Below, piece by piece: positions 22,641-49,704 of a DNA stretch of 64,000 bases. This stretch comes from a virus: the IMG/VR virus record IMGVR_UViG_3300021378_000004; one strand, written 5' to 3'. Under the pieces are notes generated by a model. That model made no database searches. It saw nothing but the letters and a program-made list of their open reading frames with translations, and had not been told where the DNA came from. Made by a program: the position numbers and the translations under genes. Position 1 is the first letter of the stretch. Every line of letters starts with the position of its first letter.

Positions 22641-22994
22641 ATGGCCCAATACGAAGAATTCACCATCGATCAAGGTGCTGACGCAGCATTTGAACTTCAT
22701 CTCACTGACACTACTGGAGCAGCAAAGAATTTAGCAAATTATTCTGTTGCCGCAAAAATAAAAAAGAATTATAATAGTGATAGTGCTGATACACATAGCT
22801 TTACGTCAATCATTGCTTCACCAAGTTCAGGTGGTATTGTAACTCTATCATTAACAAATACTCAAACTGATGCTCTCAAGACAGGAAGATACGTCTATGA
22901 TGTAGAACTTTCCTTTGTTGACAGTGATTCAAATACTGTTGTTGAAAGAATTCTTGAGGGAAGAATCCAGGTAACGCCATCGGTAACAAAATGA
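22641..22994 (+). CDS. Virion adaptor protein (BppU-N-like Ig fold)
   Basis: IDQGAD..LSLTNTQT..GRYVYDVEL..RILEGRIQVTPSVT, a family common at the start of fibre clusters in aquatic T4-like phages. Confidence 0.7.
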   Translation: MAQYEEFTIDQGADAAFELHLTDTTGAAKNLANYSVAAKIKKNYNSDSADTHSFTSIIASPSSGGIVTLSLTNTQTDALKTGRYVYDVELSFVDSDSNTVVERILEGRIQVTPSVTK

Positions 22995-23003
22995 GTATTT
23001 TAA

Positions 23004-23858
23004 ATGGCTACTGATAAAATCCGAGTAAAGGTTGCTGGAAATTCTGAAATAAAGATTTCTGAAGGCCAAACCATTGTCAAGAAAATTGTTGTAGGCACGC
23101 CTATTCGCAATGTCATACAAACTGGCAATATTCTCGATAGTGCCAGTGGAATAGTCATAAATGGTCCTCTTAAACCGACTGACCATATTATCCCAAGTAA
23201 TAATGAACTCATTGATCTAGGTAGTATTAATAATAGATTTAGAAGTCTTTATCTTTCTGGAGCAACTTTATTTGTTGGTGATCTTGCTTTAAGCGATTCT
23301 GGTGGAAATTTATTAATTAGTAATATTGATGCTAGTGGAAATATTATTAGTAGCACTCAAAGATCTCTTGCAACTGTTGATTCTGACCAAATTATTGCTA
23401 CTGTTACTCCAAAGATTGATTCTGCGGTTAACGCATTAATTGATGCAGCACCAGATCAGCTAAACACTTTAAATGAATTAGCTGCAGCGTTAAATGATGA
23501 TTCAGATGCGTTTAATAGTCTTTTAACAAAGATTAATGCAGGAGTTAGAGCAGCAGCTGCAGAATTAGACAGTATAGGCGCTGATCAAATAATCGATACT
23601 TTTTCAAGTACTGAGTTTAGAACTGTGAAATATTTGGTGCAATTGGAACATGATTCCGATAATAAATATCACTCTTCAGAAATTATATTGACACACAATG
23701 GAACTAATGTATTTTTAACTGAATACGCTGAAGTAAAAACAGATTCTTCTCTTGGCATATTTAATGCCAATATTGTAAATAATAATATTACAATTACTCT
23801 TTCGCCTTCGTATACTAACACAGATTTTAAAGCAAAAAGGATCAGTGTAGATGCGTAA
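23004..23858 (+). CDS. Tail fibre segment protein
   Basis: IIP..DLGS..RFRSLYLSG module, DAAPDQLNTLNELAAAL motif, C-terminal RTVKYLVQ..HSSEIILTHNG domain. Confidence 0.7.
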   Translation: MATDKIRVKVAGNSEIKISEGQTIVKKIVVGTPIRNVIQTGNILDSASGIVINGPLKPTDHIIPSNNELIDLGSINNRFRSLYLSGATLFVGDLALSDSGGNLLISNIDASGNIISSTQRSLATVDSDQIIATVTPKIDSAVNALIDAAPDQLNTLNELAAALNDDSDAFNSLLTKINAGVRAAAAELDSIGADQIIDTFSSTEFRTVKYLVQLEHDSDNKYHSSEIILTHNGTNVFLTEYAEVKTDSSLGIFNANIVNNNITITLSPSYTNTDFKAKRISVDA

Positions 23859-23869: not shown

Positions 23870-23899
23870 GTATTAATAATTTTACTGTAGGAATAGATT

Positions 23900-24208
23900 A
23901 TGGCTATTAAACAAAATTTTATAGTTAAGTCAGGTCTTGAAGTAGCAGATTCGGCAACAGTCGGAGGAGTTTTTAAGGCATCCGGCTTACAGTATCCTAC
24001 AGCAGACGGTAATAACAATGAGGTTATAAAAACAAACGGTGGTGGCTCTTTAAGTTTTGGAACTTTAAGAATTCGTGATTTAAGTGATGTCGATTTAAGT
24101 ACCCTTCAAGAAGAAGGTCTTTTGATTTTTGATTCAGCTACTAACACATTCCAAGCCAGAAATGAAATAATTGGTGCGGATTTAAATTCAGATGGGGGTT
24201 TCTACTAA
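23900..24208 (+). CDS. Small fibre linker protein
   Basis: N-terminal [27 protein letters not shown]-terminal DGGFY. Confidence 0.65.
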
Positions 24209-26982
24209 TGGCATCAATAATTAAGATCAAAAGATCGGGGACCGGTGGCGCACCATCAACCCTAAAACTAGGAGAATTAGCGTATTCGTATCTTGCGGGA
24301 ACACAGGGCAACGGAGGTGACCGATTATATATCGGTACTGGCGGTGTCGACGGGTCGGGTAATGCTAATGAAATTGAAGTTGTTGGTGGAGTCTATTTTA
24401 CTGACAAATTAGATCACACACCTGGAACTTTAACAGCATCTAGTGCACTTATAGTTGATGCTTCTAGTAAAATTGATGTAATAAACGTTGATAATATTAC
24501 AATTGATGCTAATACAATATCAACAACTGATACAAATGGTGCTCTTGTTCTTTCACCAAATGGAACTTCGGCAGTTAACGTACCAGCCGGTTATAAAGAT
24601 CGTAGTGGATTTGGTACTAACTCTTTAGCAACAAAAGAATATGTTGATACTGTTGCTGGTGCAACTACACTTACTTTTAAGGCTGATTCTTCTGGATCAG
24701 ATTCTATTGATTTAGATGCTGATACACTTGCAATTACTGGTAACGCTAGTACTGGTATTAGTACTATAAGATCGGCGAATGCTGTCAATATTAGTCTTGA
24801 TAATACTGCAGTTACTCCTGCATCATATGGTTCTGCATCAGCAATTCCAACATTTACTGTAGATGCACAAGGTAGATTAACAGCTGCTGGCACAGTTAAT
24901 ATTTCAACTGATCTTTCAGTTGCTGGTGATACTGGAACTGATACAGTTAATCTTCTTGATTCTGATCTTACGTTTACTGGTGGAACAGGTATTGCAACAG
25001 CAGTAACGAATAACGTTGTTACTATTAATGGTACTAATGCTACAACAAGTGCTAAAGGTATTGCATCATTTAGTTCTGATAATTTTGCGGTTTCCAGCGG
25101 CGTAGTAACTATTAAAAATGGTGGAGTTGTAGCAGCTGAATTAGCAGCTACTCTTGATCTCTCTGGAAAAAGTGTTACACTTGGAGCAGGTGAAATTAGT
25201 AATGGTGAATTGGCAAACAGTAGTATTACAGTTTCTGGTGAAACAATTGCGCTTGGCGGATCAGCCACACTAGCAACAACAAATGTAACTGAAGGTACAA
25301 ATTTATATTATACCACAGCAAGAGCAGATAGCGATGCTAAAAATGCAGTATCTGTTACTGATAATGGTGGTGATGGATCATTATCTTATAATGCATCAAA
25401 TGGTGTATTTACGTATACAGGCCCATCTGCAGCAGAAGTAAGAGCACATATTAGTGCTGGCGAAGGTATTGATATAGCTTCAGGCGTAATATCTGGGGAA
25501 GATGCTAGTACAACAAATAAAGGTATTGCATCCTTCAGTGCTGATCATTTTTCTGTAGGAGCTGGCGCAGTAACCATTAAAGCTGATGGAATAGATGCAA
25601 CACACCTTGATTTTGGTACTGGAACAGATCAAATTGCTACAGCTGATATTCCAGAACAAACTAATTTATATTACACTACAGCAAGAGCAGATAGCGATGC
25701 TAAAAATGCTATTAGCGTTAATTTTGTAAGTGGTGATGGCGCTGCTGCCTATAACGCAGGAACTGGTGTAATCTCAATTACTGGTCCTTCTGCAACTGAA
25801 GTAAGAGCGCATATCACTGCTGGAACTGGTGTAACAATAACTGACGGTGAAATTGCACTTGCTCAAGCACTCGGACCAACAGATAATGTTCAATTTGCTG
25901 ATCTTCAAGTAGATGGTAATACAGTTATTGATGGTAGCCTTACAGTAAATGGTACAACAACTACAATAAACACAGCTACAGTAACAACTAATGATCCGTT
26001 GTTTAATCTTGCTGATTCTAATACTACAGCAGATACATTGGATATTGGTTTTATTGGTAAATATTTAGATACTGGCGAATCTAGAGTCGAACGTACTGGT
26101 CTTTTTAGAGATGCGTCAGACGGTCAATATAAACTTTTTACAGGTTTACACAATCCTGGTGGAACACTTGATAGTGCCACTAATACTGTTGATATTACTG
26201 GAACAGGATTTACGTATGCAGATTTAAGAGTTGGTGTTCTTACTGGTAATGTAACAGGCAATGTTACTGGTACAGTTTCTGATATATCAAATCATTCAAC
26301 TAGTGATTTAAGTGAAGGCACTAATCTTTATTATACTACTGCAAGAGTTGATTCAGACTTAGGTCAAATACTTACAGCTGGCGAAGGTGTTGATATCACT
26401 GAAGGCGCAGGTATTATTACAATTGCGGGCGAAGACGCTAGCGTAACAAATAAAGGTATCGCATCTTTTGCTACTGCAAATTTTACAGTATCATCTGGTG
26501 CAGTTTCATCTAAAGATATTACATTAAATGGTGGATCCGGAAATGCATCTGCAACACTTGGCGAATCATTTACAATTACAGGTAATGCTTCTCAAGGAAT
26601 TAGCACTAGTGCAACAGGCACAACCGTTACAGTTACAGCAGCTGATGCTGCGGCTGACGGAAGTACAAAGGGTGTTGCTACATTTAATGCAACTAACTTC
26701 AATGCATCTTCTGGTGTTATTACAACCACTGATGTTACACTTTTTTCAGGTGATACTACTAATGGTCAAGGTGGCGGAATAGCTGCAACTAATGGTGAAT
26801 CTTTTAATATTTACGGTGATTTTGGTCAAGGTATTACAACAACAATTACTAGTGGTAACCTTATAGTTACTGGTAGAAATGCTACAAAGAATTCAAAGGG
26901 TGTTGCATCATTTGATTCAGATATGTTTACAGTAACAACAGGAGCAGTAACACTTGCAACAGTAGACGGCGGAAGTTATTAA
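24208..26982 (+). CDS. Long tail fibre segment (Mtd_N-like head, repetitive shaft)
   Basis: IKIKRS..GELAYS..RLYIG N-terminus; repeated KGIASF and [15 protein letters not shown] modules; ends DGGSY. Confidence 0.75.
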
Positions 26983-27045: not shown

Positions 27046-29559
27046 ATGACGACTAGCATTAAGCTAAAAAAGTCCAGTATTTCCGGACGCATACCATCAA
27101 CTAGTGATCTCGATTATGGCGAATTAGCCATTAACTATGCAGATGGTATATTATATTTTAAAAATTCTAGTAATCAAGTTAGTAGTATTAACGCTCGAGC
27201 AATAGGCGTTGATTCCACTGCAACTTTTTCTATTATCGATTCTGCATATATTGAATCTAGAGTTGGTAACACAACAAATATAGCAGAAGGTACCAATCTT
27301 TATTACACTTCAACGCGCGCTGATAGTGATGCTAAAAATGCAATAAGTGTTAGCGATGCTGGTGGGGATGGAGCATTATCTTACAATTCAACAACTGGTG
27401 TATTAACATATACTGGTCCAAGTGCAGCAGAAGTAAGAGCACATTTTAGTGCAGCCGGTGATATAACTTATAATTCTAGCACTGGGCAATTTAGTTTAGA
27501 TGTAGAATCAGTATACACCGCTGATAATTTTGATAGTGACTATATATTAGCAAAAGATTCTGCAAATACAGCTGTTGAAAGAAATAAGCATGACGCTACA
27601 ACTAAAAACTTTTCTGTAACAGTTGCTTCAAAAACTGCTGATCATGTTTATAACGGCACAGGAAGTGGCAGTGGTTATGTTATAGATGGTACTCAGTCAC
27701 CAATAGTACAACTACAAATAGGAAGAACATATCGTTTTACTCTTAGTTCAAGTGATATGTCAAATCACCCATTTAGATTTTATTATGATGCAGGAAGAAC
27801 TACACAATATACTACTAACGTAACAACTACGTCTACGTACGCTGAAATTGAAATAACAGAATCCACACCTACAGTATTACATTATCAATGTTCAGCGCAT
27901 GGTTATATGGGACATGCATTTGTAATTGGCACACGTAACTTAACTGGATTTAATACTGACAATTTATCTGAAGGTTCAAGTAATGTATACTACTCAAATA
28001 CTCGTGTTGAAACTTTGGTTGATTCTTCATACGTTCAATCAAGGCAAATAAACAATCCAACTGGGGTTGATTCATCTGCTACTATTGATCTAGTTGATTC
28101 AGCATATGTACAAGCCAGGCAAATAAACAATCCAACTGGTGTTGATTCATCTGCTACTATTGCTCTTGTTGATTCTTCATATGTTCAATCAAGGCAAATA
28201 AACAATCCAACTGGTGTTGATTCATCTGCTACTATTGCTCTTGTTGATTCTTCATATGTTCAATCAAGGCAAATAAAATATACTAATGATGATTTTGCTG
28301 ATTCAGCATTTGTTACTTCACAAATTAATAGTTTAATTGATGCTGCTCCTGGCGCTCTTAATACATTAAATGAACTTGCTGCAGCAATAGGTGATGATGC
28401 TAATTTTAGTACAACTGTTACAAACTCTATTGCCACTAAGCTCACTTCTGCACAAGCTACTAATTTAATAGACTCAGCTTATGTCCAATTAAGACAAATA
28501 AATAATCCATCTGGTGTAGACTCATCTGCTACTATTGATCTAGTTGATTCAGCTTATGTGCAAGCCAGACAAATAAACAATCCAACTGGTGTTGATTCGG
28601 CCGCCACTATTGCTCTTGTTGATTCAGCGTATGTTCAATTAAGACAAATTAATAATCCATCTGGTGTAGATTCTGCTGCTACTATCGATCTTGTTGACTC
28701 AGCTTATATTCAATCTAGACAAACAACTACACCAAGTGGTGTAGATTCAGCAGCAACAATTGCTTTAGTCGATTCAGCTTATGTAAATGCTTTTACTATT
28801 GATGCTAATACATTAAATGGTCAAAATGCTTCTTATTATTTAGATTATGGTAATTTAAATAATGTACCAAGTGAATTTACTGACTCAAGTACAGTTGACA
28901 GTATTATTTTAAATGTTGTTGATTCAGCATATGTACAAACTAAGTTTGGCACTCTTAGAGAAAGTAATAATTCACTAGTTGTTTCTGGAAGTATTATACC
29001 AGAAACTGATAGTGCATTTAGTCTCGGTACTGCGCAAAAGAAATTTAAAGATTTACATTTATCAGGTGGTACAGTTTTTCTTGATAATCTTGCTTTATCC
29101 GCAGATCCTGCTACACAAACTATTAATATAGGTCAAATTGACAGTATTGGTATTGTTAATGTTGTTGGTGTTATAGCAACTGTTGATTCTGCTGGAGTTT
29201 CTGCCATTGTTGACTCTGCGTTTTTAGAAGCTAGATTAGGAGACTTTGTATCAGAAACAGAATTAACATCTAAAAATTTTACTACTTTTGATTCTGCTGA
29301 TGCGACTAGTGTTATCGATTCAAGTTATATAAATAGTCTTAATGCGGATGCTGGAGCTTTAAATGGTCAGAGTGGCGCGCACTATTTGGACTATAATAAT
29401 TTTACAAATACACCCCAAGGCGGTGTTGATTATGGCACCGTGATTCAATCAGCAACTAGTGCTATTGATATACTTGATATACTTATTGCACAGACTACTG
29501 TAGATTATGGAACCGTGGGTTCACCTGGTAGTTTAAAATCTAATTACGGAACACTATAA
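27046..29559 (+). CDS. Tail fibre segment with 25-aa DS-rich tandem repeats
   Basis: IKLKKS..GELAINYADG N-terminus; LHYQCSAHGYMG cupredoxin-like module; VDSAYVQARQINNPTGVDSSATIAL repeats; ends DYGT/NYGTL. Confidence 0.75.
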   Translation: MTTSIKLKKSSISGRIPSTSDLDYGELAINYADGILYFKNSSNQVSSINARAIGVDSTATFSIIDSAYIESRVGNTTNIAEGTNLYYTSTRADSDAKNAISVSDAGGDGALSYNSTTGVLTYTGPSAAEVRAHFSAAGDITYNSSTGQFSLDVESVYTADNFDSDYILAKDSANTAVERNKHDATTKNFSVTVASKTADHVYNGTGSGSGYVIDGTQSPIVQLQIGRTYRFTLSSSDMSNHPFRFYYDAGRTTQYTTNVTTTSTYAEIEITESTPTVLHYQCSAHGYMGHAFVIGTRNLTGFNTDNLSEGSSNVYYSNTRVETLVDSSYVQSRQINNPTGVDSSATIDLVDSAYVQARQINNPTGVDSSATIALVDSSYVQSRQINNPTGVDSSATIALVDSSYVQSRQIKYTNDDFADSAFVTSQINSLIDAAPGALNTLNELAAAIGDDANFSTTVTNSIATKLTSAQATNLIDSAYVQLRQINNPSGVDSSATIDLVDSAYVQARQINNPTGVDSAATIALVDSAYVQLRQINNPSGVDSAATIDLVDSAYIQSRQTTTPSGVDSAATIALVDSAYVNAFTIDANTLNGQNASYYLDYGNLNNVPSEFTDSSTVDSIILNVVDSAYVQTKFGTLRESNNSLVVSGSIIPETDSAFSLGTAQKKFKDLHLSGGTVFLDNLALSADPATQTINIGQIDSIGIVNVVGVIATVDSAGVSAIVDSAFLEARLGDFVSETELTSKNFTTFDSADATSVIDSSYINSLNADAGALNGQSGAHYLDYNNFTNTPQGGVDYGTVIQSATSAIDILDILIAQTTVDYGTVGSPGSLKSNYGTL
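28018..28785 (+). repeat. 75-bp tandem repeat in two blocks (~28018-28278 and ~28468-28785)
   Basis: Equivalent GAY-TCN codons recur at 28021, 28096, 28171, 28246 and at 28471, 28546, 28621, 28696, 28771. Confidence 0.88.
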
Positions 29560-29574: not shown

Positions 29575-29591
29575 TAGGTTAGAGGAATAAA

Positions 29592-32500
29592 ATGGCATTA
29601 CAATTTAGACGCGGTACAGATTCAGATAGACTAACTATCACCCCGGCAGCTGGTGAACCTATTTTTACCAGTGATACAAAAGAACTTTTTATAGGTGACG
29701 GTTCAACTACAGGCGGTATTGATCTTATCACTACAAAATTAGGAAGTATTTCTGGAGACATTATACCAGATACAGATAGTACGTATGATCTTGGTTCACC
29801 TACTAAGAAATTTAAAGATTTACATTTAAGTGGAAACTCTATATTTTTAGGTGCTGGATTAGTACTTTCTAATGATGGTGGTACATTTGCAGCTAAAGAT
29901 TCAGATAACAATCCAGTCGTTATATCGTTAACTAGTAACAACACAGGCCAATTATCTGAAGGTACAAATTTATATTATACGACAGCACGCGCAGATAGTG
30001 CATTTGATGTAAGATTAGCAACTAAAACAACAGCTAATATAACAGAAGGTTCTAACTTATACTTTACTAATGCTCGAGCAGATGCCAGAATAACAAATGC
30101 ATTACTTGATGAAGATAATATGGCATCAAATAGTGCTACTAAAATTCCATCACAGCAATCTGTTAAAGCTTATGTTGATGCAGAAGTTGCAGGAATAGTT
30201 GATACTGCTCCAGCAGCACTAAATACATTAAACGAATTAGCAGCTGCGCTTGGCGATGATGCTAACTTTAGTGCTACAATAACTGCTCAAATTGGAGCAA
30301 AATTAGATTCAGCAGAAGCAATATCTCTCATAGATTCTGCTTATGTACAAGCAAGGACAACTGCTGGCACAGATTCAGCTGCTACAATATCACTAATAGG
30401 AGCAACTGTAGACTCAGCTTATGTACAAGCAAGACAAACATCAGGCGGCGGTAGTAGTATTGATTCAGCTGCAACAATTGCTTTAATTGATTCATCTTAT
30501 GTACAAGCAAGACAAGTTGATCCAGTTTCAGCATTCACTACTGTATCAGTTACTGGTCAAACAGATATTGTTGCAGACGCAGATGCCGCAGTGCCAGATT
30601 GGACGTCAGGAACACAACAAGCTAAAATTATAAGAGTTCCTTTTGCAAACATTATGAGTGGTGATGGTTTTGGTAGAAGTCCAAGTTTAAGCACTAATGG
30701 TAATTATGCTGTTGTTGGTTCTGGCAAATCCAGTAATAACAGAGGTGCTATACATTTTCTGTCTAGATCCGGATCTACATGGACTTATGGTCAGATGATA
30801 AATAGAACAGGTGGACATGCATCTGATTTTACAGGTTTTGGCGATCATGTGGTTATGTCAAATGACGGCACAATTGCACTTGGTGCTGCTCAGTATGATC
30901 CTAGTGCAGCCAACGCTTCTTATGCAACGGGAGTAGTTTACCTTTTTACAAGAACCGGTTCCACGTGGTCACAACATTCCGCCATAGAACCCACATCTCC
31001 TAGTCCAGTTACCAATGATATGAGATTTGGTGCGTCAGTTGATATTAGTGGAGATAATCAGTATATAGTAATAGGAGGACCTGGCAACAATAAAGGTGTA
31101 TACATATACATAAATGATGGCTCAGGTAATTTTTCATTACAACAAAAACTAACAACATCAAATAGTGGAGATGACTATGGTGGTGGTGTAGCTATTGATG
31201 AAGATGGTAATACAATTGTTGTGAGTCATCAAGGTTCAGGATCTACAGGAAAGATTTACACATATGTAAGATCTGGTACAAATTGGACATTACAACAAAC
31301 AATAGCTCCGTCAGGAGCAGTAGATATTGGTTGGGATGATCGAAAAGGAAAAGGCGTAGCTATATCAAGTGATGGTAATAGAATAGCTTTTGGTAGTGGT
31401 GGAATATACAGTACTGGATCTTCTATATACATCTGGAATAGATCTGGTACAACTTGGACTCAGGAACAGAACATAACTCCATCTCATACAGTTGGTTCTG
31501 GCACCAACCAGGTTTTAAGATTTGGCCAAAATGTTAGTTTAAGCAATGATGGTACTCGTCTTGTAGCAGGTACTGATAGATTTAACACGCTCAGTCATGC
31601 AGAAACAGGTATAACATATGTTTTTACTAGAAATGGTTCAGGTGTATGGAGTGAGTCTAAAATATTATCTCCAAGCGATTTAGCTTCAGAAGATCAATTT
31701 GGTCTTGGTGCTAATATATCTGGAGATGGAACAACAATATTAAGTCATTCTAAATTAGCAGACTTAGTAGACGGTAGTGATACATATACAAATGCTGGGG
31801 CAGTATATGCGTTTACAGCGCCAGTAGGAAATCCATTACAAGATACTCTTACATTTGAAGCTGGTGCTGGAATAACTATTACAACTAATGCCACCACTGA
31901 TACAGTTACAATTGCTGGATCAGCAGCTGGTTTAGATTCAGCAAGTACAACTGCTTTAGTCGATTCAGCATATGTTCAAGCAAGACAGACTTCTGCCGGT
32001 GGTGGTATTGATTCTGCTGCAACAACTGCTTTAATTGATTCATCTTATGTACAAGCAAGACAAATAAAATACACTAATGCAGACTTTACGGATTCAGCAT
32101 ATGTTACTTCACAAATCAATAGCGTAATAGACGCTGCACCTGGAGCTCTAGATACTTTAAACGAATTAGCGGCTGCACTAGGTGATGACGCAAACTTTAG
32201 TACAACAATAACAAATCAAATTGCGGGTAAATTAGATTCTGCTCAAACTATTGCTTTAGTTGATTCAGCTTATGTTCAAGCAAGACAGACTTCTGCCGGT
32301 GGTAATGATTCAGCAACAACAATTGCTTTAATCGATTCAGATTATGTTCAATCAAGACAAGTTACTCCTGTTCCAGCGTTTACTAAAGTATCAATTGCTG
32401 GTCAAGGCGATGTCGTGGCAGATGCAGATGCTGCAATTCCAAACTGGGCAAGTGGCACACAACAAGCTAAGTTATTAGCAGCAGATGCAGCTACTGGAGA

Positions 32501-35700: not shown

Positions 35701-38700
35701 ATGGCAATAAATTTTCCAAATAGCCCCACAAACAATCAGTCGTTTACCAGTGGCGGAAAAACATATACTTATAATTCCACAAAAACAGCTTGGACAGTAA
35801 ACCAAACGCTTGGTTATGATTCTGCTACGGTTATTAATTTAATTGACTCAGACTATGTACAAGCAAGAACGGCTGCTGGTACAGATTCTGCTGCAACAAT
35901 ATCATTAATAGGAACTACTGCTGACTCGGCTTATGTTCAAACAAGACAAATTAAATATACTAATAATGATTTTGCTGATTCAGCCTTTGTCACAACTCAG
36001 ATTAATAGTGTAATCGATGCTGCACCTGGAGCTCTAGATACTTTAAACGAATTAGCGGCTGCACTTGGAGATGATGCTAACTTTAGTACAACAATCACAA
36101 ATCAAATTGCAGGTAAATTAGATTCAGCCACTACCATTGCTTTAATTGATTCATCTTATGTTCAAGCAAGAGTGACAGCAAGTGGTATTGATTCTGCTGC
36201 AACAATTGCTTTAATTGATTCATCTTATGTTCAAGCAAGAGAAACAGCTCAAGTTATTCAAATTGATTCTTCTCTTACAACTGGTGATTCTTCACAGATA
36301 ATAGATCAGTTTCCTATAGGAACTCATAGGACAACAAAGTATATAGCACAACTTAGCTCTTCTGAAGTCATAGGTTATACTAATTGGCCTGGTATGACTC
36401 AACAACAAATTATACTAGGAAATGAAACAGGCATAACTGATAATATGGGTAGTGGTGATGAGTTTGGTAGAGGAATGGCTATAGGAACAAATCAATTACT
36501 TGTAGGTTCTACTAGAAATGATTATAGTACTGATAATTCTGGAGTTGTTGTGTATTATACAAGAGATAGCGCTAATGGCACTTGGTCTTATACTGACTTT
36601 GTTCAACCTAGTTCTCCTGCATCGAGTGACTTTTTCGGTCAATCTATTGCGCCAGATTCAAACTTTGATACTATTGCAGTTACCGGCCATACTGAAGGTC
36701 TGTATATCATGGATAGAGCACCAAATGACTGGCGCGGTGGTGTTCAGAAAGGATTTTTTAAAGCTAATTCTTCTGCTTTAAACGATGATGAATTTGGAAA
36801 AGCTGTTAGTATTTCAGCCAATGGTAATTATCTTGCATCAGGCGCACAATCAAGAGACACTGGCGGAAGTAATAGAGGAGAAGTATTCATTCATTATAAA
36901 GATAGCTCTACATGGAGTTTTCAAGCAGCAATACAATCAGATGATATTGCAAATGGCGACAAATTTGGAAATTGTGTTGCACTAAACGATGCTGGTGATA
37001 CATTAGTTGTTGGTGCTTGGTTTAAAGGAGGAGGATCTAGTGGTATTGGAGCTCCTGGTGCTGCTTATATTTTTACAAGAAGTGCAACAACGTCAGTAGG
37101 TTCAATTTCTAACGCAAGTTATGTACATAAATCACCACAGACTTGGCAAGCTGGAATGTCAGGTGATGCAAATGCTAATCAGCCACATACATTAGCATTT
37201 AAACCAGATGGCACAAAAGCATACATTGCAGATGCTAACACAGATCTTATATATCAATATAGTTTGTCAACACCATATGAAGTGACAGATGCTTCAATGT
37301 CGTATGATAGCATATCGTTTAATATACGAACCTCTATGGGTAGTACACCGTTACCAGCTTCAATGAAATTTAAACCTGATGGAACAAAATTATTTGTTCT
37401 GAATGAAAGCAATGATACAGTATACGAATATAACTTGTCAACTGCATATGATTTAAGTACTATTTCGTATAATAATGTAAATATTGCCATAGGTTCAGTT
37501 GAAGGTTTCCCAGAAGGAATATTTTTCAAGCCTGATGGAACTATAATGTATGTGGTTGGAGTCCAAAATGATTCTGTGCGTATGATGGATTTATCAACTG
37601 CTTGGGACATCTCAACTGCTACATATAATAGTTCTAATAATTTTTATGTGGGCAATCAAGACGGCGAACCCATGGAAGTAATATTTGATAGTAGTGGTAC
37701 TAAAATGTATATGGTAGGTCAGGTGAATAAGGCAATTTATACATACACCTTATCAACTGCTTGGGACGTTACATCTGCAAGTTATGATAATATGTATTAC
37801 AGTATGGCCACTGGCACAGATGTTGGAGGAGCGCAAAAATCGATTGCTTTGAGTGAAGATGCTGATGAGAATAAGTTATTTGTTGTTGGAATTTTTCGTG
37901 ATGAAGTATTTAGAATTGATTTACCACTTGTATTCACTTGGTCGCAACAAGCAAAATTAACTCCTTCTGATCATCCTGGAAACAATGATGTTTGGTATTT
38001 CGGTAATGGGTGTGATATATCTAATGATGGTAACTCTGTTATAATAGGAGCTCCTTACGCTAAAGTTGGTAGTAATCAAACTCAAGGCGCTGCTTATATT
38101 TTTAATAGATCAGGTACAACTTGGTCTCAATATGCAAAATTAGTAGCCAATGACGGCGCCGCCAATGACGCTTTTAGTGGTGACGTCAATGGAACTGGAA
38201 CCTCACACGCTGTAGCAATTTCAGGCGACGGAGGTTATGCTATTGTGGGCGCGCCTTATGACGATGATACCGCAAGTGATGCTGGTACTGCTTATATTTT
38301 TGCTAAGACTGGTAGCAATTACAATCTAGTTAACCCAACATATACTGGAAACGAAAATATCAGTAATCCTTTTACTAATTCTACAGACTTAGCGTTTAAT
38401 GCAGATGGAACAAAAGTGTATGTGTGTGATTATATTCTCAATATAGTAGGCCAATATAGTTTATCCACTCCGTATCTTATATCAAGTGCAACATACGATA
38501 GTGTTTCTCTTAATGTAAATAGTTATGAAGAAGATATTAAAGCACTAGCGTTTAGTACAGATGGAACAAAATTATTTGTTGCTGGTGCTGCTAGCAATAA
38601 AATTATTAGGTATAATTTATCAACAGCTTTTGATTTAAGTACTGCATCATATCACTCTCAAATAAGTGTAAGTAGTCAAAATACTGGTATTGGTTCTATT

Positions 38701-41617: not shown

Positions 41618-44600
41618 ATGGATAATTTAAAAAACTTTGTAGTAAATAAGGGCCTTGAAGTTGCCGATTCTATTAACACTGGGTTCATTACACTCAATGG
41701 TAAATCAGTTTCAGGTTTAGTAGATTCTTCTAATGTATTAGGTTTAATTGACTCAGCTTATGTACAAGCAAGATCGCCGGCAAGTGGAAATGATTCAGCC
41801 ACTACCATTGCTTTAATTGACTCAGCTTATGTACAAGCAAGACAAACTAAATATACAAATGCAGACTTTACTGATTCAGCCTTTGTCACAACTCAGATTA
41901 ATAGTGTAATCGATGCTGCACCAGGAGCTCTAGATACATTAAATGAATTAGCAGCTGCACTTGGAGATGATGCAAACTTTAGCACAACTATTACTAATCA
42001 AATTGCAGCTAAACTAGATTCTGCTCAAGCTATTGCTATTGTCGATTCATCTTATGTTCAAGCAAGAGTGACAGCAAGTAGTGGTAACGATTCAGCAACA
42101 ACAATTGCCTTAGTTGATTCGTCTTATGTACAAGCAAGACAAATTACTCCTGTCTCGGCGTTTAACACTATAACAGTTGCTACTCAAAATGATGTTGTAT
42201 CTGATACAACAGCTATAAGTTATGAAAATACAGCACAGCAAGCTATACTTCAAGCAAGTAACAGAGGCCAAGATTATTTTGGACAGAGAGTAGCTATTGA
42301 CAATGGATACGCAATAGTAAATGCAGACAATGAAGATACTGGAGGAAGTAATGCTGGAAGTGTTTACGTTTATGTGAGATCTGGCACAACTTGGTCTCAG
42401 CAACAGCAAATAACATCGCCAATATCTCCACCAGACAACCATTATTTTGGAACTGATCTTGATATAGAAGGATCAAGAATTGTAATAGGAACTAAATACG
42501 ATGATACAGATTATAACCACGGTGGAGGCGTGCATGTTTATACTAGATCAGGTACAACTTGGTCTTTAGAACAAAGATTAGCTAGTTCTGATATTGCTGC
42601 CAACGATTGGTTTGGTGATAGAGTGGCTATAAGTGGAAATTATATAGTTGCATCAGCCCATAAGAAAAATTCATCTGAAGGTGCAGTTTACGTATTTAAA
42701 GGTGCTACTTCAACGACATTACAAGGGGCATCGTACGACAGTGTTCAATCTGTATCTTTAAATGCTATTGAAACACAACCAAGAAGTATGTTATTTAATT
42801 CTGATGGAACAAAAGTATATATTGTAGGAATGTCTTCAGATGCAATTAAACAATATAGTTTAGCAACTCCATATGATATTTCAACTAATTTCTTATCAAA
42901 TGCAAGTTCAAGTTACTCATTAACAATTTCTGGTCAAAATAATATGGGTATTTATGCAATGAGATGGAATAATGATGGTACAAAAGTATATGTTCTTTGT
43001 AATAATAACATGAAAATATACCAGCATGATTTAACTACTGCATATGATATAAGTACTGCTTCTTATAGTAACAAAAATTTTAGTACTACAACACAAGAAA
43101 ACAATTACGCAGGTTTTACTTTTAATAATGATGGTACATCAATGTATTTGTGTGGAGCTCAAAACAATAAAGTTTTTCAATATACTTTATCAACTGCATA
43201 TGATATAAGTACTGCTTCATATGCTAGTAAATCATTTACCCCTTCAGGATCGCATGGTGGCACAACAGCTATTCAATTTGATGAAAGTGGAAAAAAATTA
43301 TTCATTTTAGGTAACTCATTACGACAACACGATTTGACTACTGCATTTGACGTAAGTTCTAGTATTTCAGTTTCGTATGCAATAAACATACTTACTAATG
43401 CTACTCAAGCTGGCGATTTTACATTCAATGCAGACATGAGTAAACTGTATGCTGTAGAACCAGGTGCTGACAAAATATTTCAATTTTCAACTAGTGGTGC
43501 TTCGACTGTTTGGGTTCAACAAGCTAAACTATTAGCAAGCGATAACACTACTGGCGATAAGTTTGGCTTTGACGTTGCAATAGATGGCGATACTATTGCT
43601 ATAGGCGCTGCAGTTGCGGATACTGGAGGAAAAGTCTATGCATTTACAAGATCCGGAACAACTTGGTCGCAACAGGCAGCATTTACATCGTCTGATATTA
43701 GTAGTGAAGATGAGTTTGGTGGTAGTGTATCTATAAGCGGTGATACAATATTAGTAGGAGCTTATTCAGCAGGCGGTACTTCAAGTGCACCCCACGGAGC
43801 TGCTTATGTATTCACAAGATCTGGATCAACTTGGTCTCAACAAGCTAAAATACAGCCAAGTGATACTCCAAATCCTTCTAGTGCTACGATAGCGTTTGCT
43901 TATAGACAACTAGCAATTGAAAATGACATTGCAATAATAGGCCATAGTACTGCAACTCTTGATGGTACTGCTAATGTTGGTGCAGCGTATCTTTTTAAAA
44001 GATCAGGAACAACTTGGACACAGGTAAATAAATTTGGTGCATCTGATGCCACAGCTTCTGATGGATTTGGTCATGGAGTTGATATAGACGGAAGAGATAT
44101 TATTGTAGGTGCTCCAAGTGAAAATAGTGGTAAAGGACAAGCTTATACGTTTGTAGTACCAGATGCAGCAATATACTCAGATACTCTTACACTAGCAGGC
44201 GGTTCTGGAATAACTCTTACGAGTAATGCTACAACTGATACAGTTACAATTGCTGCAGCAGCAGCAGGTAATGATTCAGCAACAACAATTGCTCTTATTG
44301 ACTCATCTTATGTACAAGCAAGACAAATTACGCCAATTTCATCTTTTAATACTATATCAGTTTCTAGTCAAACAAATGTTGTAGCAGACCCAACAGTTAC
44401 AAATTTTGCCACCACTACACAAGCTCAAAAATTAACAGCATCAGATGCTGCCAGTAGTGATTTTTTTGGTAACGTAGTTGATATAGACGGTGATTATGCA
44501 GTAGCAGGAGCCAGAGGCAACAAAGCAGTTTATGTATATTACTATAACGGAACAACATGGTCAGAACAACAAAAAATACAACAAACAGCATTTGGATCTA

Positions 44601-45973
44601 ATTTTGGTCATGCAGTATCAGTAGTTGGTGATACATTATTAGTAGGTTCAAATAATACTGATGGATCAAATGCGGATGGAACAAAAGCATATGTGTATAC
44701 ACGATCAGGTACAACGTGGTCTTTACAACAAAAAGTAGATCCATCTCAAGCACTTGAAAATGATTATTTTGGTTATCAAAAAACATTGAAGTTAGATAAT
44801 ACTGATAATAACCAATTTATTGCAGGATCTTACGGTGAAGATGAAACAAATAGTAATGAAGGTGCTGTTTACATTTTTAACAGATCAGGCACTACTTGGT
44901 CAGAAACACAAAGAATAGTTCCTTCAGATAAGGCATCGAACTCTAATTTTGGTGTAAGTGTTGATATAGCAGGCGACTATGCTATTTTTGGCGGGAATAA
45001 CGCCGTTTATGTTTACTACAAATCAGGTGGCACTTGGTCTCAGCAACAAAAAATTGCAAATCCTTATGAAGCCGGAAATGGACATTCAGGTCCTACCAAT
45101 GCTGTTAATTTTGGAACAGATGGTGAAATAAGTATAAACGCAGCAGGAGACACTATAGCTGTAGGTGCAAGAGGACAATCCAATCTACCTGGATACGTAT
45201 TTGTTTTTACAAGATCTGGCACTACATGGACGCTTCAACAAGCATTAAGATCTTCTAATACTGCTAATGAAGACTTTTTTGGATGGAGTGTGAGCTTAGA
45301 TGGTACAGGTAATTCTTTAACAGTAGGAGCGAAAACAACAAGCACTGGCGGTAAAGCATATATTTTCACAAGAACCGGGACAACGTGGACAGAAGTAAAA
45401 GACTTTACAGCTTCAGACGTAGCAGCCAATTGGGAATTCGGTGAAGGTATAGGAATAAGTAGAAGCAATGATAAAATAATAGTAGGTGCAAGGCAAAACA
45501 GTTCAAGCACCAGTGGTACAGGCGCAGTTTATATATTTAATCCAGGAAGTACAGCAACATACTCAGATACTCTTACACTTGAAGCTGGTACAGGAATAAC
45601 TCTTACAACTGCTGCAGGTACTGATACAGTTACAATTACTGGATCTGCTGCAGACGAGCTTATTTCAATTGACTCTGATTTAACTTCAACTGATTCTGAT
45701 CAAGTTATACATAGCTTTAGTAAAACTAGTTTTAGAACAATGAAATATATAGCACAGCTTAAACACGCAGGTGATAATGCATATCATTCAGAAGAAATAT
45801 TGTTAACGCATAACGGAACAAATGTAGTAATAACAAGCTATGCGAAATTACTTTTAGATTCTGACCTTGGAGAATTTGATGCAGCAATAAACGGAAGTAA
45901 TGTAGAACTTAGATTAACTCCAACAAAAACAAATACAAATGTAAAGCTAAAAGCAATTAGTACTACAGTATAA
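41618..45973 (+). CDS. Fibre/adhesin with two FG-GAP propellers and one NHL-like propeller
   Basis: NFVVNKGLEV N-terminus; DAAPGALDTLNELAAAL; propeller repeats; C-terminal RTMKYIAQ..HSEEILLTHNG domain. Confidence 0.8.
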   Translation: MDNLKNFVVNKGLEVADSINTGFITLNGKSVSGLVDSSNVLGLIDSAYVQARSPASGNDSATTIALIDSAYVQARQTKYTNADFTDSAFVTTQINSVIDAAPGALDTLNELAAALGDDANFSTTITNQIAAKLDSAQAIAIVDSSYVQARVTASSGNDSATTIALVDSSYVQARQITPVSAFNTITVATQNDVVSDTTAISYENTAQQAILQASNRGQDYFGQRVAIDNGYAIVNADNEDTGGSNAGSVYVYVRSGTTWSQQQQITSPISPPDNHYFGTDLDIEGSRIVIGTKYDDTDYNHGGGVHVYTRSGTTWSLEQRLASSDIAANDWFGDRVAISGNYIVASAHKKNSSEGAVYVFKGATSTTLQGASYDSVQSVSLNAIETQPRSMLFNSDGTKVYIVGMSSDAIKQYSLATPYDISTNFLSNASSSYSLTISGQNNMGIYAMRWNNDGTKVYVLCNNNMKIYQHDLTTAYDISTASYSNKNFSTTTQENNYAGFTFNNDGTSMYLCGAQNNKVFQYTLSTAYDISTASYASKSFTPSGSHGGTTAIQFDESGKKLFILGNSLRQHDLTTAFDVSSSISVSYAINILTNATQAGDFTFNADMSKLYAVEPGADKIFQFSTSGASTVWVQQAKLLASDNTTGDKFGFDVAIDGDTIAIGAAVADTGGKVYAFTRSGTTWSQQAAFTSSDISSEDEFGGSVSISGDTILVGAYSAGGTSSAPHGAAYVFTRSGSTWSQQAKIQPSDTPNPSSATIAFAYRQLAIENDIAIIGHSTATLDGTANVGAAYLFKRSGTTWTQVNKFGASDATASDGFGHGVDIDGRDIIVGAPSENSGKGQAYTFVVPDAAIYSDTLTLAGGSGITLTSNATTDTVTIAAAAAGNDSATTIALIDSSYVQARQITPISSFNTISVSSQTNVVADPTVTNFATTTQAQKLTASDAASSDFFGNVVDIDGDYAVAGARGNKAVYVYYYNGTTWSEQQKIQQTAFGSNFGHAVSVVGDTLLVGSNNTDGSNADGTKAYVYTRSGTTWSLQQKVDPSQALENDYFGYQKTLKLDNTDNNQFIAGSYGEDETNSNEGAVYIFNRSGTTWSETQRIVPSDKASNSNFGVSVDIAGDYAIFGGNNAVYVYYKSGGTWSQQQKIANPYEAGNGHSGPTNAVNFGTDGEISINAAGDTIAVGARGQSNLPGYVFVFTRSGTTWTLQQALRSSNTANEDFFGWSVSLDGTGNSLTVGAKTTSTGGKAYIFTRTGTTWTEVKDFTASDVAANWEFGEGIGISRSNDKIIVGARQNSSSTSGTGAVYIFNPGSTATYSDTLTLEAGTGITLTTAAGTDTVTITGSAADELISIDSDLTSTDSDQVIHSFSKTSFRTMKYIAQLKHAGDNAYHSEEILLTHNGTNVVITSYAKLLLDSDLGEFDAAINGSNVELRLTPTKTNTNVKLKAISTTV

Positions 45974-46012: not shown

Positions 46013-46237
46013 ATGGAAAAAGAAGACAACTCAAATGCAGTAATAATCGACGATAAAGAATATAAAATTGAAGATTTCACTGAGGAGCAAACCTATCAAG
46101 TAAGGCAGATTAGAGATTTACAAACTAAATCTAATAATCTTCGTTTTCAAATTGATCAATTGCAAACAGCTGAAAAAGCATTTTCAAGTGCACTTGTATC
46201 ATCTTTAACAAATGAAGAAATTAAAAAAGATAAATAA
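46013..46237 (+). CDS. Small acidic coiled-coil protein (possible fibre chaperone)
   Basis: IDDKEYKIEDFTEEQ..LRFQIDQLQTA; AGGAG RBS. Confidence 0.65.
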   Translation: MEKEDNSNAVIIDDKEYKIEDFTEEQTYQVRQIRDLQTKSNNLRFQIDQLQTAEKAFSSALVSSLTNEEIKKDK

Positions 46238-46248: not shown

Positions 46249-46275
46249 GTATAAACTCTTGGGGAAAGTGAACCA

Positions 46276-49200
46276 ATGTCAAATTTAAAAAATTTTGTAG
46301 TAAGAAAAGGTCTTGAAGTTGCTGAATCTATTAAACTTAATAACAAAACAGTTACAACTTTACTTGATTCTGCTAATACATTAAGTCTAGTTACGGCAAA
46401 CAGTACTACAGCATCAGCAGTTCAATCTTTAATTGACTCAAGTTATGTTTCTGCACGTTCTCCATCACCAACAACTGTTGTAGCTACTATGGCAGCCTTA
46501 GGCGCAGTTACAGGAATGGTAGCTGGTGATCAAGCATTAGTTACTGGTGTTAATAAAATATTTATGTATAATGGAACTGGGTGGTATCTTGTTGCAACAA
46601 TTACAAATGCAGCGCCATCTGCGATAACTGGTGTTGATAGTGCTTATACATTAGCTCAAAATGGAACAGCAACTGTTATCAATGCAATTGCAACTGACCC
46701 AGAAGGTTTACCTCTTTCGTGGAGTTCATCGACTAGTGGTCTTGGCGATATTGCTACAATCACTCAAGGAACTGGAGATTCATCTAATTACTTTACTGTA
46801 ACACCTGCTACTTCTGGTAGCAGTAGCGGTGGTACATTTACTCTTACAATAGCAGCAACAGACAATGTCAATGGCGCTGTAAATTTTCCTGCTTCTTTTA
46901 CATTGACATTTATTGCTGATTGGACGACAACTGCTCAACAATCAATGTTAACTGCAACTGATGCGGGGTCGAATGATTTTAATGGTATTTCTGTAGATAT
47001 CAAAGGTGATCGGGCAATTACAGGTGCCAGAGGAGAAAAAGCAGCTTATGTCTGGAAAAGAAGTGCAACAGCATTATTAAGTTCTATCGCGCTCACCACT
47101 TATAGTAATGTTCAATCTGATGCTTTGTATTCGGATTTGGGTTCCCATGTATATCCGGAGTTAACTGGATTTATATTTAATGCTGATGGAACAAAAATTA
47201 TTACAATTAATAAATATTATGACAAATTAGATCAATGGAGTTGTTCTACAGCATATGATATCACTTCTTCTTCTTTATCACATGATAGTGTTTCATTCAG
47301 TGTAGCAAGTCAAGCAAGTCATGCAGAGTGTTTAAGAACAAATAATGACGGAACTAAATTATTTGTTGTATGTAGTGTTACTGATAAAATTTATGAATAT
47401 GATTTAAGCACTGCATATGATATAAGTACAGCTTCGTACAATAACGTTAATTTTGCAGTTACTCAAGATAATAATCCAAGAGGAATATTTTTTAAACCAG
47501 ATGGACAAACTATGTATCTTGCTGCTGGTAGCACTCATGACAAGATTTGGCAATTCTCATTAAGTACTGCGTGGGATCTTTCAACTATATCATATGCTAA
47601 TAAAGTATCTCCTACTGTATATGCTCAAACTGGTAGTTGGCCTCAAGATGTTGTTTTTCTCAATGATGGCGCAACAATGGTTATTATAGGACAAAGTAAT
47701 GATGCGTTATATCAATATAACTTAACAACTGCGTGGGATGTAAGTACTGCATCATACGCTAATGCTTCCTTTAGTGTTTCAAGTCAAGATGGTACACCAA
47801 ATGGATTAACGCTGCATCCTGCTGATTCTACTAAACTATTTCTTATTGGTCATAATAATGGTAAAATAACCCAATATAATCTAGATGCTTCTGTTTGGGC
47901 TCAAGAAGCTAAAATAGATGGATCTTCCGGTGGTAATAATGCAGGCATTTCAGTCGCAATGAGCACTGATAATAACTATGTTATACTAGGATCTCCATCC
48001 TATGGTGGATCGAGCAAAGGTGCGGGAATTGTGTATGTAAGATCTGGCACATCATGGACATATCAGGCTGCATTAGTTCCTTCAGATGTAGCTGCTAATG
48101 ATGAAGCTGGATTGTCTGTAAGTATAAGTAGTGATGGTACATATGCAACTGTTGGTGCTCAAGCTGAGGATTCTTATAAAGGTGCAGCATATGTTTTTAT
48201 AAGATCTGGTACGTCATGGTCACAACAACAAAAAATTACAGAACCAACTAGAGAAGCTAGCGCTTCATTTGGAGCTGCAGCTAAATTAAACGATGCTGGC
48301 GACGTTTTATTGTGTAGTAGTCCGTTGAGCGATGAAGCAGTGGGAAATGCTGGAGCTGCATTTATTTTTACAAGATCTGGAACAACATGGTCGTATTCGA
48401 CATATGCGGCAGCATCAGATGCAGGTGGAAGTGATTATGCCGGAGGTACCGGTTCAGGCGCTAATCAGCAAAATGCTTCAGACATTAACGAAGATGGAGA
48501 TTTAATAGTAGTTGGAGCATATGGTCACAATACTGGAGGTGTTGGTAATTCAGGAGCCGCTTACATTTTTAAAAAAGGTTCAACTCATTATGATATAGCT
48601 GGAGCTACATTTACTGCAGCTGAGTATGTACACGCTAACTTCACTAATTGTACTGCAATAACATTTAATGGAGATGGAACAAAAATATTTGCGGCTGGTG
48701 GTGGTTATGATAGAATAGCCAGTTATACCTTAACTACTGCATATGATATATCAACTGCATCATACGACAGTAATCCGTTAGTTACTAGTAGTTATGAAGG
48801 TAATCCAAATGGGTTGCAATTTAACGCAGATGGAACAAAATTATTTTTCTGTGGATCTGCTGCAAATAGAATTTTTGTATATAATTTAACTACTGGATAT
48901 GATTTATCTACTGCATCAATAGGTAATAGTGGTAATGGTGTTTCATTCGCGTCACAAGATAATAATACTAGAGATATGAAATTTAAACCTGATGGAACAG
49001 TATTGTACGTGGTGGGTCAGCAATACGATAAAGTTTATCAATATTCTTTATCTACTGCATTTGATATAACAACTATATCATATGCTAGTAAATCTTTTTC
49101 TGTTACTTCACAAGAGAGTACCCCAGAAGGAATTGACTTTACACCCGATGGAACGAAAATGTTTATTATTGGTGAGCAATATAATGATGTTTTTCAATAT

Positions 49201-49704
49201 AACTTATCTACAGCATGGGATGTAAGCACAGCATCATACGCTAATACAAGTTTTGATTTAGGTTCTAGACAAGCACTGTCTTCTGCTGTTATATTTAATC
49301 CTAATGGCACTAAAATGTTTACAGCTGGAAGAAGTGCAGATAATATAAACGAATTCGACACTAGTGCTAAGAGTTACTCTCAGGTTACTAAATTAACTCC
49401 CCCTTCGAATGTATTAAATCAAAATTTTGGAGAAACTGTTGCTATATCTGGAAACACAGTTGCAATAGGAGTTCAATCAGCTGGTGGCGGCGGCGCTAAT
49501 GCAGTATCTTATGTCTATGATACAAGCGATGAAAGCACTTGGACTTTAAGAAAAACATTTGCTGGATCAGATATTGCAGCTAGTTATAAATATGGTTTTT
49601 CAATTGCCATAGATGAAACCAATAAGTCAATAATAGTAGGTTCGCCGGGCGTAGCTAATCAGACTCCATCACCTGGTCGTGCATATGTATTTACAGCATC
49701 ATAA
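46276..49704 (+). CDS. Terminal fibre/adhesin: Ig/cadherin-like domain, FG-GAP propeller with two inserted NHL-like propellers
   Basis: NFVVRKGLEV N-terminus; NAAP..ATDPEG..LSWS Ig-like module; propeller repeats run to the C-terminus. Confidence 0.8.
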   Translation: MSNLKNFVVRKGLEVAESIKLNNKTVTTLLDSANTLSLVTANSTTASAVQSLIDSSYVSARSPSPTTVVATMAALGAVTGMVAGDQALVTGVNKIFMYNGTGWYLVATITNAAPSAITGVDSAYTLAQNGTATVINAIATDPEGLPLSWSSSTSGLGDIATITQGTGDSSNYFTVTPATSGSSSGGTFTLTIAATDNVNGAVNFPASFTLTFIADWTTTAQQSMLTATDAGSNDFNGISVDIKGDRAITGARGEKAAYVWKRSATALLSSIALTTYSNVQSDALYSDLGSHVYPELTGFIFNADGTKIITINKYYDKLDQWSCSTAYDITSSSLSHDSVSFSVASQASHAECLRTNNDGTKLFVVCSVTDKIYEYDLSTAYDISTASYNNVNFAVTQDNNPRGIFFKPDGQTMYLAAGSTHDKIWQFSLSTAWDLSTISYANKVSPTVYAQTGSWPQDVVFLNDGATMVIIGQSNDALYQYNLTTAWDVSTASYANASFSVSSQDGTPNGLTLHPADSTKLFLIGHNNGKITQYNLDASVWAQEAKIDGSSGGNNAGISVAMSTDNNYVILGSPSYGGSSKGAGIVYVRSGTSWTYQAALVPSDVAANDEAGLSVSISSDGTYATVGAQAEDSYKGAAYVFIRSGTSWSQQQKITEPTREASASFGAAAKLNDAGDVLLCSSPLSDEAVGNAGAAFIFTRSGTTWSYSTYAAASDAGGSDYAGGTGSGANQQNASDINEDGDLIVVGAYGHNTGGVGNSGAAYIFKKGSTHYDIAGATFTAAEYVHANFTNCTAITFNGDGTKIFAAGGGYDRIASYTLTTAYDISTASYDSNPLVTSSYEGNPNGLQFNADGTKLFFCGSAANRIFVYNLTTGYDLSTASIGNSGNGVSFASQDNNTRDMKFKPDGTVLYVVGQQYDKVYQYSLSTAFDITTISYASKSFSVTSQESTPEGIDFTPDGTKMFIIGEQYNDVFQYNLSTAWDVSTASYANTSFDLGSRQALSSAVIFNPNGTKMFTAGRSADNINEFDTSAKSYSQVTKLTPPSNVLNQNFGETVAISGNTVAIGVQSAGGGGANAVSYVYDTSDESTWTLRKTFAGSDIAASYKYGFSIAIDETNKSIIVGSPGVANQTPSPGRAYVFTAS

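Follow-up and report, generated by a model that had tools for sequence, protein, structure and literature searches.

The 64,000-nucleotide stretch of IMG/VR virus record IMGVR_UViG_3300021378_000004 (hereafter the window) carries, between positions 22,641 and 49,704, a run of fibre genes, and raises the question of how the products of consecutive genes are joined. The original prediction, made from this DNA alone, was that the end of each gene foretells the start of the next and that about eight proteins form a single, very long appendage. Our analysis points, with a probability of about 0.65, to multi-segment tail fibres that follow the principle of the T4 long tail fibre, with three kinds of terminal joint and in two chains, where the segments are probably joined in the order of their genes. 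The principle itself is not new but reused: in T4, gp34, gp35, gp36 and gp37 are joined in gene order and plugged into gp9 (PMC5537660, PMC3004832). Genes and proteins are named below by the first nucleotide of the gene, and coordinates are collected in Table 1.

A probable C-terminal socket and N-terminal plug

The first kind of joint would be made by a C-terminal trimeric β-sandwich domain, X, and by a plug, Y, which it receives: the N-terminal ~11 residues of the protein encoded next, with the core [IL]-K-x-F-x-[VL]. Three proteins, 23004, 35701 and 41618, had been proposed to end in the same domain of ~100 amino acids (aa). This was borne out for 23004 and 41618, whose X domains are contiguous, ~100 aa long and 53% identical over 96 aa (E 1.5e-29), whereas in 35701 only the last ~65 aa of X are C-terminal, the first ~40 aa lying ~1,670 aa upstream. 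The two parts match positions 12-53 and 56-120 of the X hidden Markov model (HMM) and are separated by propellers, which in this protein are of the FG-GAP_2 and Lactonase types; the split point is the hairpin loop between the R-T-x-K-Y strand and the H-S-x-E-I strand. In the metagenomic proteins P0130-P0132, which have two X domains in tandem, the second domain is split in the same way. Protein 46276 has no X domain in the HMM search, in keeping with its predicted lack of a socket-type end.

The AlphaFold2 model of X from 23004 has eight strands, with a mean predicted local distance difference test (pLDDT) of 79, and forms the eight-stranded β-sandwich that characterizes the gp9 C-domain fold. 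Its top Foldseek match in the PDB is T4 gp9 (1qex_A, E 2.4e-5, TM score 0.65, 22% identity, 111 columns), and ranked after it are a Klebsiella phage KP1 chain, from the region of the baseplate, and several entries for phage tailspikes. At the sequence level, X matches the C-terminal end of the phrog_967 profile (E 6.8e-12 for 23004 and 1.8e-9 for 41618), whose name, 'baseplate wedge tail fiber protein connector', is also the RefSeq name of T4 gp9. As modelled, X is a gp9-type socket domain. Since the N-terminal gp9/10 domain (PF07880) has no match in 23004, 35701 or 41618, and within the window is carried by open reading frame (ORF) 8379 alone, the X-bearing proteins are not gp9 orthologues. 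The T4 long tail fibres bind the gp9 C-domain coaxially (PMC3004832).

Position is a constant property of both partners. X stands at the extreme C-terminus in every one of 37 IMG/VR loci (32-55% identical to the X of the window) and in 120/120 of the best X proteins from a 5.8-billion-protein collection. Twelve metagenomic fibre proteins (P0121-P0132) end in two tandem X domains with a short linker; the 12 'internal' X domains that we found are tandem X-X arrangements, not X-Y. The Y motif N-F-x-V-x-x-G-L-E-V-A occupies residues 6-16 of 23900, 41618 and 46276. A DNA pattern built on K-N-F-x-V-K-N-G-L matched 128 times, in 120 stretches of contig, and 126 of these matches are N-terminal, 3 to 8 residues in when the start is ATG; 19 of the 128 apparently use non-ATG starts (GTG or TTG). 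Natural socket-plug fusions, which the original prediction had led one to look for, turned up neither in the 120 best X proteins nor at any of the 128 Y hits.

The two partners are also neighbours. In the window, the translations confirm that a gene with a Y start comes after every X gene, with the 74-aa gene 46013 standing between 41618 and 46276. In the 37 loci, the gene next to X usually has a Y start or a variant half-motif, M-A-T-K-I-K-x-F-N-L, or is a 74-aa gene that is itself followed by Y, and runs of two or three consecutive X/Y junctions were seen in two loci (L033, L036). An X-ending gene lies upstream for about two thirds of the Y pattern hits, or 60 of 84 distinct Y-start genes at the pattern-selected loci, and a Y-start gene comes next for 24 of 33 X clusters. 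Among 947 distinct pairs of neighbouring genes from contigs of uncultured phages other than the window itself, X ends and Y starts are strongly associated (2 × 2 table 72 / 19 / 30 / 826, Fisher p 3e-65). In IMG/VR contigs L047-L166, about one quarter of the Y-start fibres are preceded by the end of a Gly-rich domain rather than by X; their plug is of the type M-A-V-N-K-N-F-V-V-K-N-G-L-E-V ... K-V-G-I-G, and any socket for it would be encoded elsewhere.

One joint, 23004/23900, was modelled as a complex of three X chains (aa 163-284 of 23004) and three Y chains (aa 1-40 of 23900). This trimer-plus-trimer prediction scored 0.91, against 0.41 for the best control. Of 80 solved complexes, 58 attain the score mark used, and of 110 mismatched pairs, 2 do; these counts are approximate here because of our own alignments and the 3 + 3 set-up. 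At least 97% of the contacts agree between runs, and the pLDDT of the partner is at least 83. The predicted interface is formed by residues 1-11 of Y with aa 225, 229, 235-245 and 254-256 of 23004, and strand 235-245 holds T-E-Y-[AG], one of the best conserved X motifs, which is present in T4 gp9 too. This prediction supports the idea that the X of one fibre protein holds the N-terminal end of its successor.

Further support for such binding comes from a small adaptor of related loci. In three of them (L003, L004, L017), an LtfC-like gene is followed by a gene for an adaptor of 86-88 aa ending in N-G-G-x-Y; its N-terminal half aligns to the start of 23004 (z-score about 7) and its C-terminal half to the end of 23900 (z 4-7). 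By these alignments, the window carries a cassette, consisting of a shaft with X in one gene and of Y at the start of the next, inserted into a chain that is single elsewhere. Such an arrangement would be functional only if X and Y came together again.

Several observations weigh against this interpretation. Direct alignment of X to gp9 is weak (hhalign, X 36-86 with gp9 188-240, E 0.025, the E-Y-A strand being common to both), and a profile search of the PDB with X returned only spurious ubiquitin matches and not gp9. Conservation at the modelled interface is no higher than in the rest of X (mean 2.08 versus ~2.07 bits, 85 distinct domains). Since neighbouring genes share ancestry, the Fisher test shows a conserved arrangement and not many independent events. 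For 30 of 102 Y-start genes no X is detectable upstream, a gene with a Gly-rich tip often being found there, and in the cultured cyanophage S-SM2, a Synechococcus phage (locus L044, 7600-9692), the tail-fibre protein SSM2_107 ends in an X-like domain and is followed by a gene without a Y start. As to the plug, Y and the N-terminus of T4 gp34 (M-A-E-I-K-R-E-F-R-A-E-D-G-L-D-A-G-G) share the spacing of F, G-L and G-G (residues 8-18), which makes kinship a lead, but the Y HMM gives gp34 2.6 bits and rank 253 of 1294, which is not significant. Moreover, a PDB profile search with Y gave one spurious dUTPase match and no solved chain with the plug by sequence, and tblastn searches of cultured phages, whether with the N-terminus of a Y protein or with a Y converter of 120 aa, returned nothing useful.

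Could X and Y then be neighbours without ever docking, X being a distal knob and Y a baseplate anchor, so that the fibres attach independently and the adjacency comes from tandem duplication and recombination? Genes 35701, 41618 and 46276 are indeed paralogues (~30% identity over >1,000 aa), so that a repeated X/Y boundary could come from duplication; the host-recognition clusters of such phages are recombination hot spots (PMC7029224), and the ~30% of Y without an upstream X would find an easy place in such a scheme. However, in T4 a single domain is known to hold the N-terminus of a fibre, and X shares its fold; the split adaptor needs X and Y to re-join, and the complex model passes its controls. 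Duplication of a gene with Y at its start and X at its end does not explain the rule either, since X proteins mostly start with other heads: among the 120 best, 78 begin with a gp37-type head, 8 with an Mtd_N-type head and 5 with Y. We therefore consider independent attachment improbable and retain docking of X and Y as the preferred explanation.

Short C-terminal tails and their probable partner heads

The second kind of joint would bring a D-G-G-x-[YF]-COOH tail together with a gp37-like head (I-K-[IL]-K-[KR]-S ... G-E-L-A), and the third would join other short tails, here N-Y-G-T-L-COOH, to an Mtd_N head (L-Q-x-R-R-G ... G-E). The original prediction rightly placed the DGGFY, DGGSY and NYGTL ends of 23900, 24208 and 27046 before three heads, but it called all three heads Mtd_N-like, and this applies to 29592 only, the other two being of the gp37 type. 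In the T4 record, gp36 ends in D-F-G-Y-Y and gp37 starts with I-Q-F-K-R-S ... G-E-L-A-I-N. The head of 27046 is clearly homologous to the N-terminus of T4 gp37 (z 12.6, 0/1000 shuffles as good), that of 24208 gives z 5.6 (1/1000 shuffles as good), and that of 29592 is not significantly similar (z 1.5). Conversely, Pfam Mtd_N (PF18454) matches aa 4-39 of 29592 (E 1.5e-9; 38 bits with the whole protein and 44.9 bits with the first 60 aa, for a gathering cut-off of 26.3 bits) and has no match in the heads of 24208 and 27046. Thus the window holds both parts of a T4-type gp36/gp37 joint, a gp37-like head and, directly upstream of it, a D-x-G-x-Y-COOH tail. The Pfam family Phage_T4_gp36 (PF03903), which matches T4 gp36 itself with E 9.6e-53, has no hit in 23900 or 24208, and neither protein matches any other Pfam family.

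These pairings hold well beyond the window. A gp37-type head follows a GGx[YF] tail in 14 of 14 distinct cases, the T4 gp36-gp37 pair included; a GGx[YF] end next to a head was observed 11 times against 0.34 expected among 1106 pairs. Heads of the Mtd_N type (L-Q-x-R-R-G) follow other tails in 17 of 17 cases, namely FDSGxxx, SLDGGxS, YGT[IL] and LGTIPT, and locus L015 has a DYGTI tail before an LQIRRG head, the same pairing as between the NYGTL end of 27046 and 29592. What had been predicted as one class is thus two separate joint types, and orthogonality of docking stands in so far as tails and heads sort into separate classes. Proteins of 100-180 aa with a Y start, followed by a fibre of the Mtd_N or gp37 type, recur widely, and 23004, 23900 and 24208 are one case of this three-gene module of socket, converter and fibre.

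Collectively, the gp9 fold, the likeness to gp36/gp37, the adjacency, the terminal positions and the controlled model uphold the proposal that X with Y, and tails with heads, act as terminal docking pairs of consecutive genes; both sets of motif pairs are far from chance. It is tempting to go further and to regard the three mutually exclusive joints as a general grammar, with which, for many uncultured phages of the sea and of fresh water, fibre architecture could be read directly off gene order. At present we put this forward as a tentative extension, somewhat more doubtful than not.

Two probable chains, their order and their ends

The original prediction had drawn a further docking pair between a module within 29592 and the start of the next fibre, 35701. 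Both motifs are present, but we reject them as plug and socket: the N-terminus of 35701 and the PSSP module of 29592 align with z 1.5, 67 of 1000 shuffles being as good, and gene 35261 separates the two. If related at all, they would be the same module and not complementary ones. The last ~450 aa of 29592 (33900-35261) consist of the PSSP module, short collagen-like G-A-T repeats and a Gly-rich domain, and correspond to a separate gene of 339 aa in L004 (z 17), whose N-terminus is homologous to the PSSP module (z 16.6); the end of 29592 is therefore a fused tip module. The comparison with L004 reveals a natural fusion or fission at the module boundary, with a phrog_7759 gene following in both cases (the L004 region is 18304-19661).

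Because this pair fails, and because 29592 closes with a Gly-rich module resembling a tip, behind which lies a small conserved gene, the window holds at least two chains, and a single eight-protein appendage is not supported. Chain A likely comprises 23004, 23900, 24208, 27046 and 29592 (5 proteins, 4,036 aa), with 29592 at the distal end: the socket of 23004 would take the plug of the converter 23900, whose GGFY tail would lead to 24208, then to 27046 and finally to the Gly-rich tip of 29592. Chain B is probably made of 35701, 41618 and 46276 (3 proteins, 4,552 aa), with 46276 as its terminal segment. Here the socket of 35701, which carries propellers in its loop, would receive 41618, a protein with both plug and socket, which in turn would receive the plug of 46276, with the 74-aa protein at this last joint. 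The L015 homologue of 29592 has X at its end instead of a tip, and the genes behind it encode the 74-aa protein, a Y converter and a fibre with an Mtd_N head. This locus links all three joints serially and indicates that a single long series exists in relatives.

Chain B raises the question of whether each socket accepts only its neighbour. Within the window the three X/Y pairs resemble one another, so that partner choice in chain B may be free, and 41618 may polymerise with itself. The joints could be real but promiscuous, any Y fitting any X, a socket on the baseplate included; a branched or mixed network would form, 41618 could polymerise to variable length, and gene order would not be assembly order. 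The three Y plugs are nearly alike, as are the contact strands of X in 35701 and 41618; one locus (L038) has two Y-start fibres behind a single X gene; and two tandem X domains are found in the 12 metagenomic proteins mentioned above. In Ackermannviridae, branched complexes are built on gp10-like domains (PMC8825819), and ORF 8379 has such a domain. On the other hand, most loci show a one-to-one adjacency of X to Y, in series of three or four in L033 and L036, and at contact positions the X of 23004 and the Y of 23900 are unlike their counterparts in chain B, a hint that there are two specificity classes. On balance we regard promiscuous joining as unlikely, and joining in gene order as the better account.

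The anchoring of the chains would call for a root. ORF 8379, in the baseplate region, matches phrog_677, 'baseplate wedge tail fiber protein connector', over aa 1-298. Its C-domain (aa 227-309), confidently modelled, superimposes on the docking region of CBA120 TSP4-N (aa 88-184) with Z 8.6, a root-mean-square deviation of 2.8 and 83 aligned residues, and its C-terminal 80 aa also resemble an Acinetobacter phage tailspike domain (Z 8.6-10.4 for both); the middle and the rest of the model are of low confidence (pLDDT 57). The TSP4-N-like C-domain makes ORF 8379 a possible root for one chain. It is not a second X socket, since its C-domain fold differs and hhalign gives E 0.7. At the start of the fibre operon, the LtfC-like protein is possibly an anchor or assembly factor; it matches phrog_1084 (E 4e-24) and phrog_3304 (E 4e-19), and an LtfC-like gene also comes first in L003, L004, L017 and L031.

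Two other small proteins may take part. A gene for a helical protein of 74-75 aa also stands between an X gene and a Y gene in L014 (1561-1785), L015 (6317-6541) and L038 (3902-4129), and this conserved phrog_21153 protein could be a component of the joint, in a position comparable to the knee-cap T4 gp35, or an assembly factor. At the corresponding position, locus L093 has a gene of 94 aa, at a joint between a GGSF tail and a gp37-type head. The 131-aa protein encoded after the Gly-rich tip (35261) has a homologue after the Gly-rich gene of L004, and a similar small gene precedes a fibre with an INFPxSP head in L099; we infer that it is an assembly factor or a tip partner.

Genomic setting and relation to known fibres

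Table 1. Coordinates of the fibre genes, their terminal elements and the baseplate connector in the window
Feature	Coordinates	Strand	Domain match
Baseplate gp9/gp10-family connector (ORF 8379)	8379..9320	+	PF07880 E 7.5e-7
LtfC-like β-sandwich protein, first gene of the fibre operon	22641..22994	+	PF23926 E 5e-4 (under the curated cut-off)
23004: small-adaptor N-part (aa 1-55), shaft modules, socket X (aa 186-284, nt 23559-23855)	23004..23858	+	
23900, converter of 102 aa: Y plug (aa 1-16, nt 23900-23947), DGGFY-COOH tail (nt 24191-24205)	23900..24208	+	
24208, fibre: gp37-type head (nt 24208-24300), DGGSY-COOH tail (nt 26965-26979)	24208..26982	+	
27046, fibre: gp37-type head (nt 27046-27147), NYGTL-COOH tail (nt 29542-29556)	27046..29559	+	
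29592: Mtd_N head (nt 29601-29708), shaft and FG-GAP propellers (Pfam FG-GAP_2), PSSP module (~nt 33900-34016)	29592..35261	+	
Gly-rich tip domain of 29592	34407-35153	+	Gly_rich_2 E 3.4e-15 (Pfam)
Small conserved protein, 131 aa, after the Gly-rich tip	35261..35656	+	phrog_7759 E 2.6e-39
35701: X socket in two parts, aa 178-219 (nt 36232-36357) and aa 1893-1957 (nt 41377-41571)	35701..41580	+	
41618: Y plug (nt 41618-41665), propellers, X socket (aa 1336-1451, nt 45623-45970)	41618..45973	+	
Helical small protein, 74 aa, between socket gene and plug gene	46013..46237	+	phrog_21153 E 4.9e-13
46276: Y plug (nt 46276-46323), propellers, without socket	46276..49704	+	

The source of the window is a marine myophage, T4-like but distant. 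Comparison of gp15 gives Phage C48C1 (50% of amino acids) and then Pelagibacter phage Mosig (40%) as the closest records, and DNA near-identical to the window was absent from 50,697 phage records. All fibre genes lie on the + strand; upstream of them are baseplate genes (gp5-, gp6- and gp8-like, and the gp9/10-like ORF 8379-9320), and downstream are neck and tail-terminator genes (PF11649 at 50478, PF16724 at 51359). This layout agrees with the host recognition cluster of pelagi- and cyanomyophages, which precedes the neck genes and contains fibres, glycosyltransferases and radical-SAM cassettes (PMC7029224). A cassette of enzyme-like genes (17920-22554), compatible with the same cluster, separates the baseplate genes from the fibre genes. 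Motifs of the T4 late-promoter type, TATAAATA, stand just 5' of several fibre genes (23870-23885, 29565-29585, 41585-41595, 45975-46000 and 46245-46265), so that each segment may have its own late promoter.

Several features are shared with the T4 long tail fibre: products of consecutive genes would follow each other head to tail, the socket is a C-terminal β-sandwich with the gp9 fold, a D-x-G-x-Y-COOH tail precedes a gp37-type head as at the T4 distal joint, and the plug, like that of gp34, lies at the very N-terminus with the spacing F-x-[VA]-x-x-G-L-x-[VA]-G. However, T4 has its socket on the baseplate protein gp9 only, encoded far from gene 34, whereas in the window it is found at three fibre ends, each beside the gene of the presumed partner. 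Converters of ~100 aa between joint types and large propellers of the FG-GAP and lactonase types further distinguish the window from T4, and a homologue of gp35 was not found in it.

Other systems share single features. In the Ackermannviridae phage CBA120, small domains of the tailspike proteins TSP1-4 related to T4 gp9/gp10 dock the N-termini of other receptor-binding proteins (PMC8825819, PMC11414711), but these domains are near the N-terminus and build a compact branched bundle, while the C-terminal coaxial socket of the window would allow serial extension. The head of 29592, unlike those of 24208 and 27046, resembles the N-terminal domain of Mtd of Bordetella phage BPP-1 (PF18454); no diversity-generating retroelement was seen in the window, in the course of searches not aimed at one. 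The docking domains of polyketide synthases and non-ribosomal peptide synthetases, to which the original prediction had likened the joints, are likewise short terminal elements that order separate subunits colinearly with their genes, but they belong to enzymes and not to structural trimers and have no sequence or fold relation to X and Y, and the parallel is an analogy only. Papers on phages phiKZ, Sf14 and A-1(L) contain nothing on an X/Y joint. What is new in the window is the presence of gp9-type sockets at distal fibre ends, the small converters and a socket that tolerates an insertion of 1,670 aa, together with strictly terminal partners and a gene-order rule that extends over many uncultured phages.

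In pelagic T4-like phages, the host-recognition clusters are large and hypervariable and for the most part lack annotation, and their tail-fibre proteins could not be identified in one study (PMC7029224). If the joints hold, a few terminal motifs would reveal which giant proteins share one fibre, in what order they stand and which of them forms the receptor-binding tip, and would guide the prediction of whole-fibre structures, the inference of host range from metagenomes and the reading of cassette exchange. They would also extend the T4 gp9-gp34 and gp36-gp37 interfaces to a large natural set of sequence pairs fit for co-variation analysis. To our knowledge, the atomic details of these two interfaces are still poorly known. 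Should the general grammar prove true, distal sockets would allow the extension of fibre on fibre, small converters would switch between joint types, and proteins with both plug and socket, such as 41618, might set or vary the length of the fibre.

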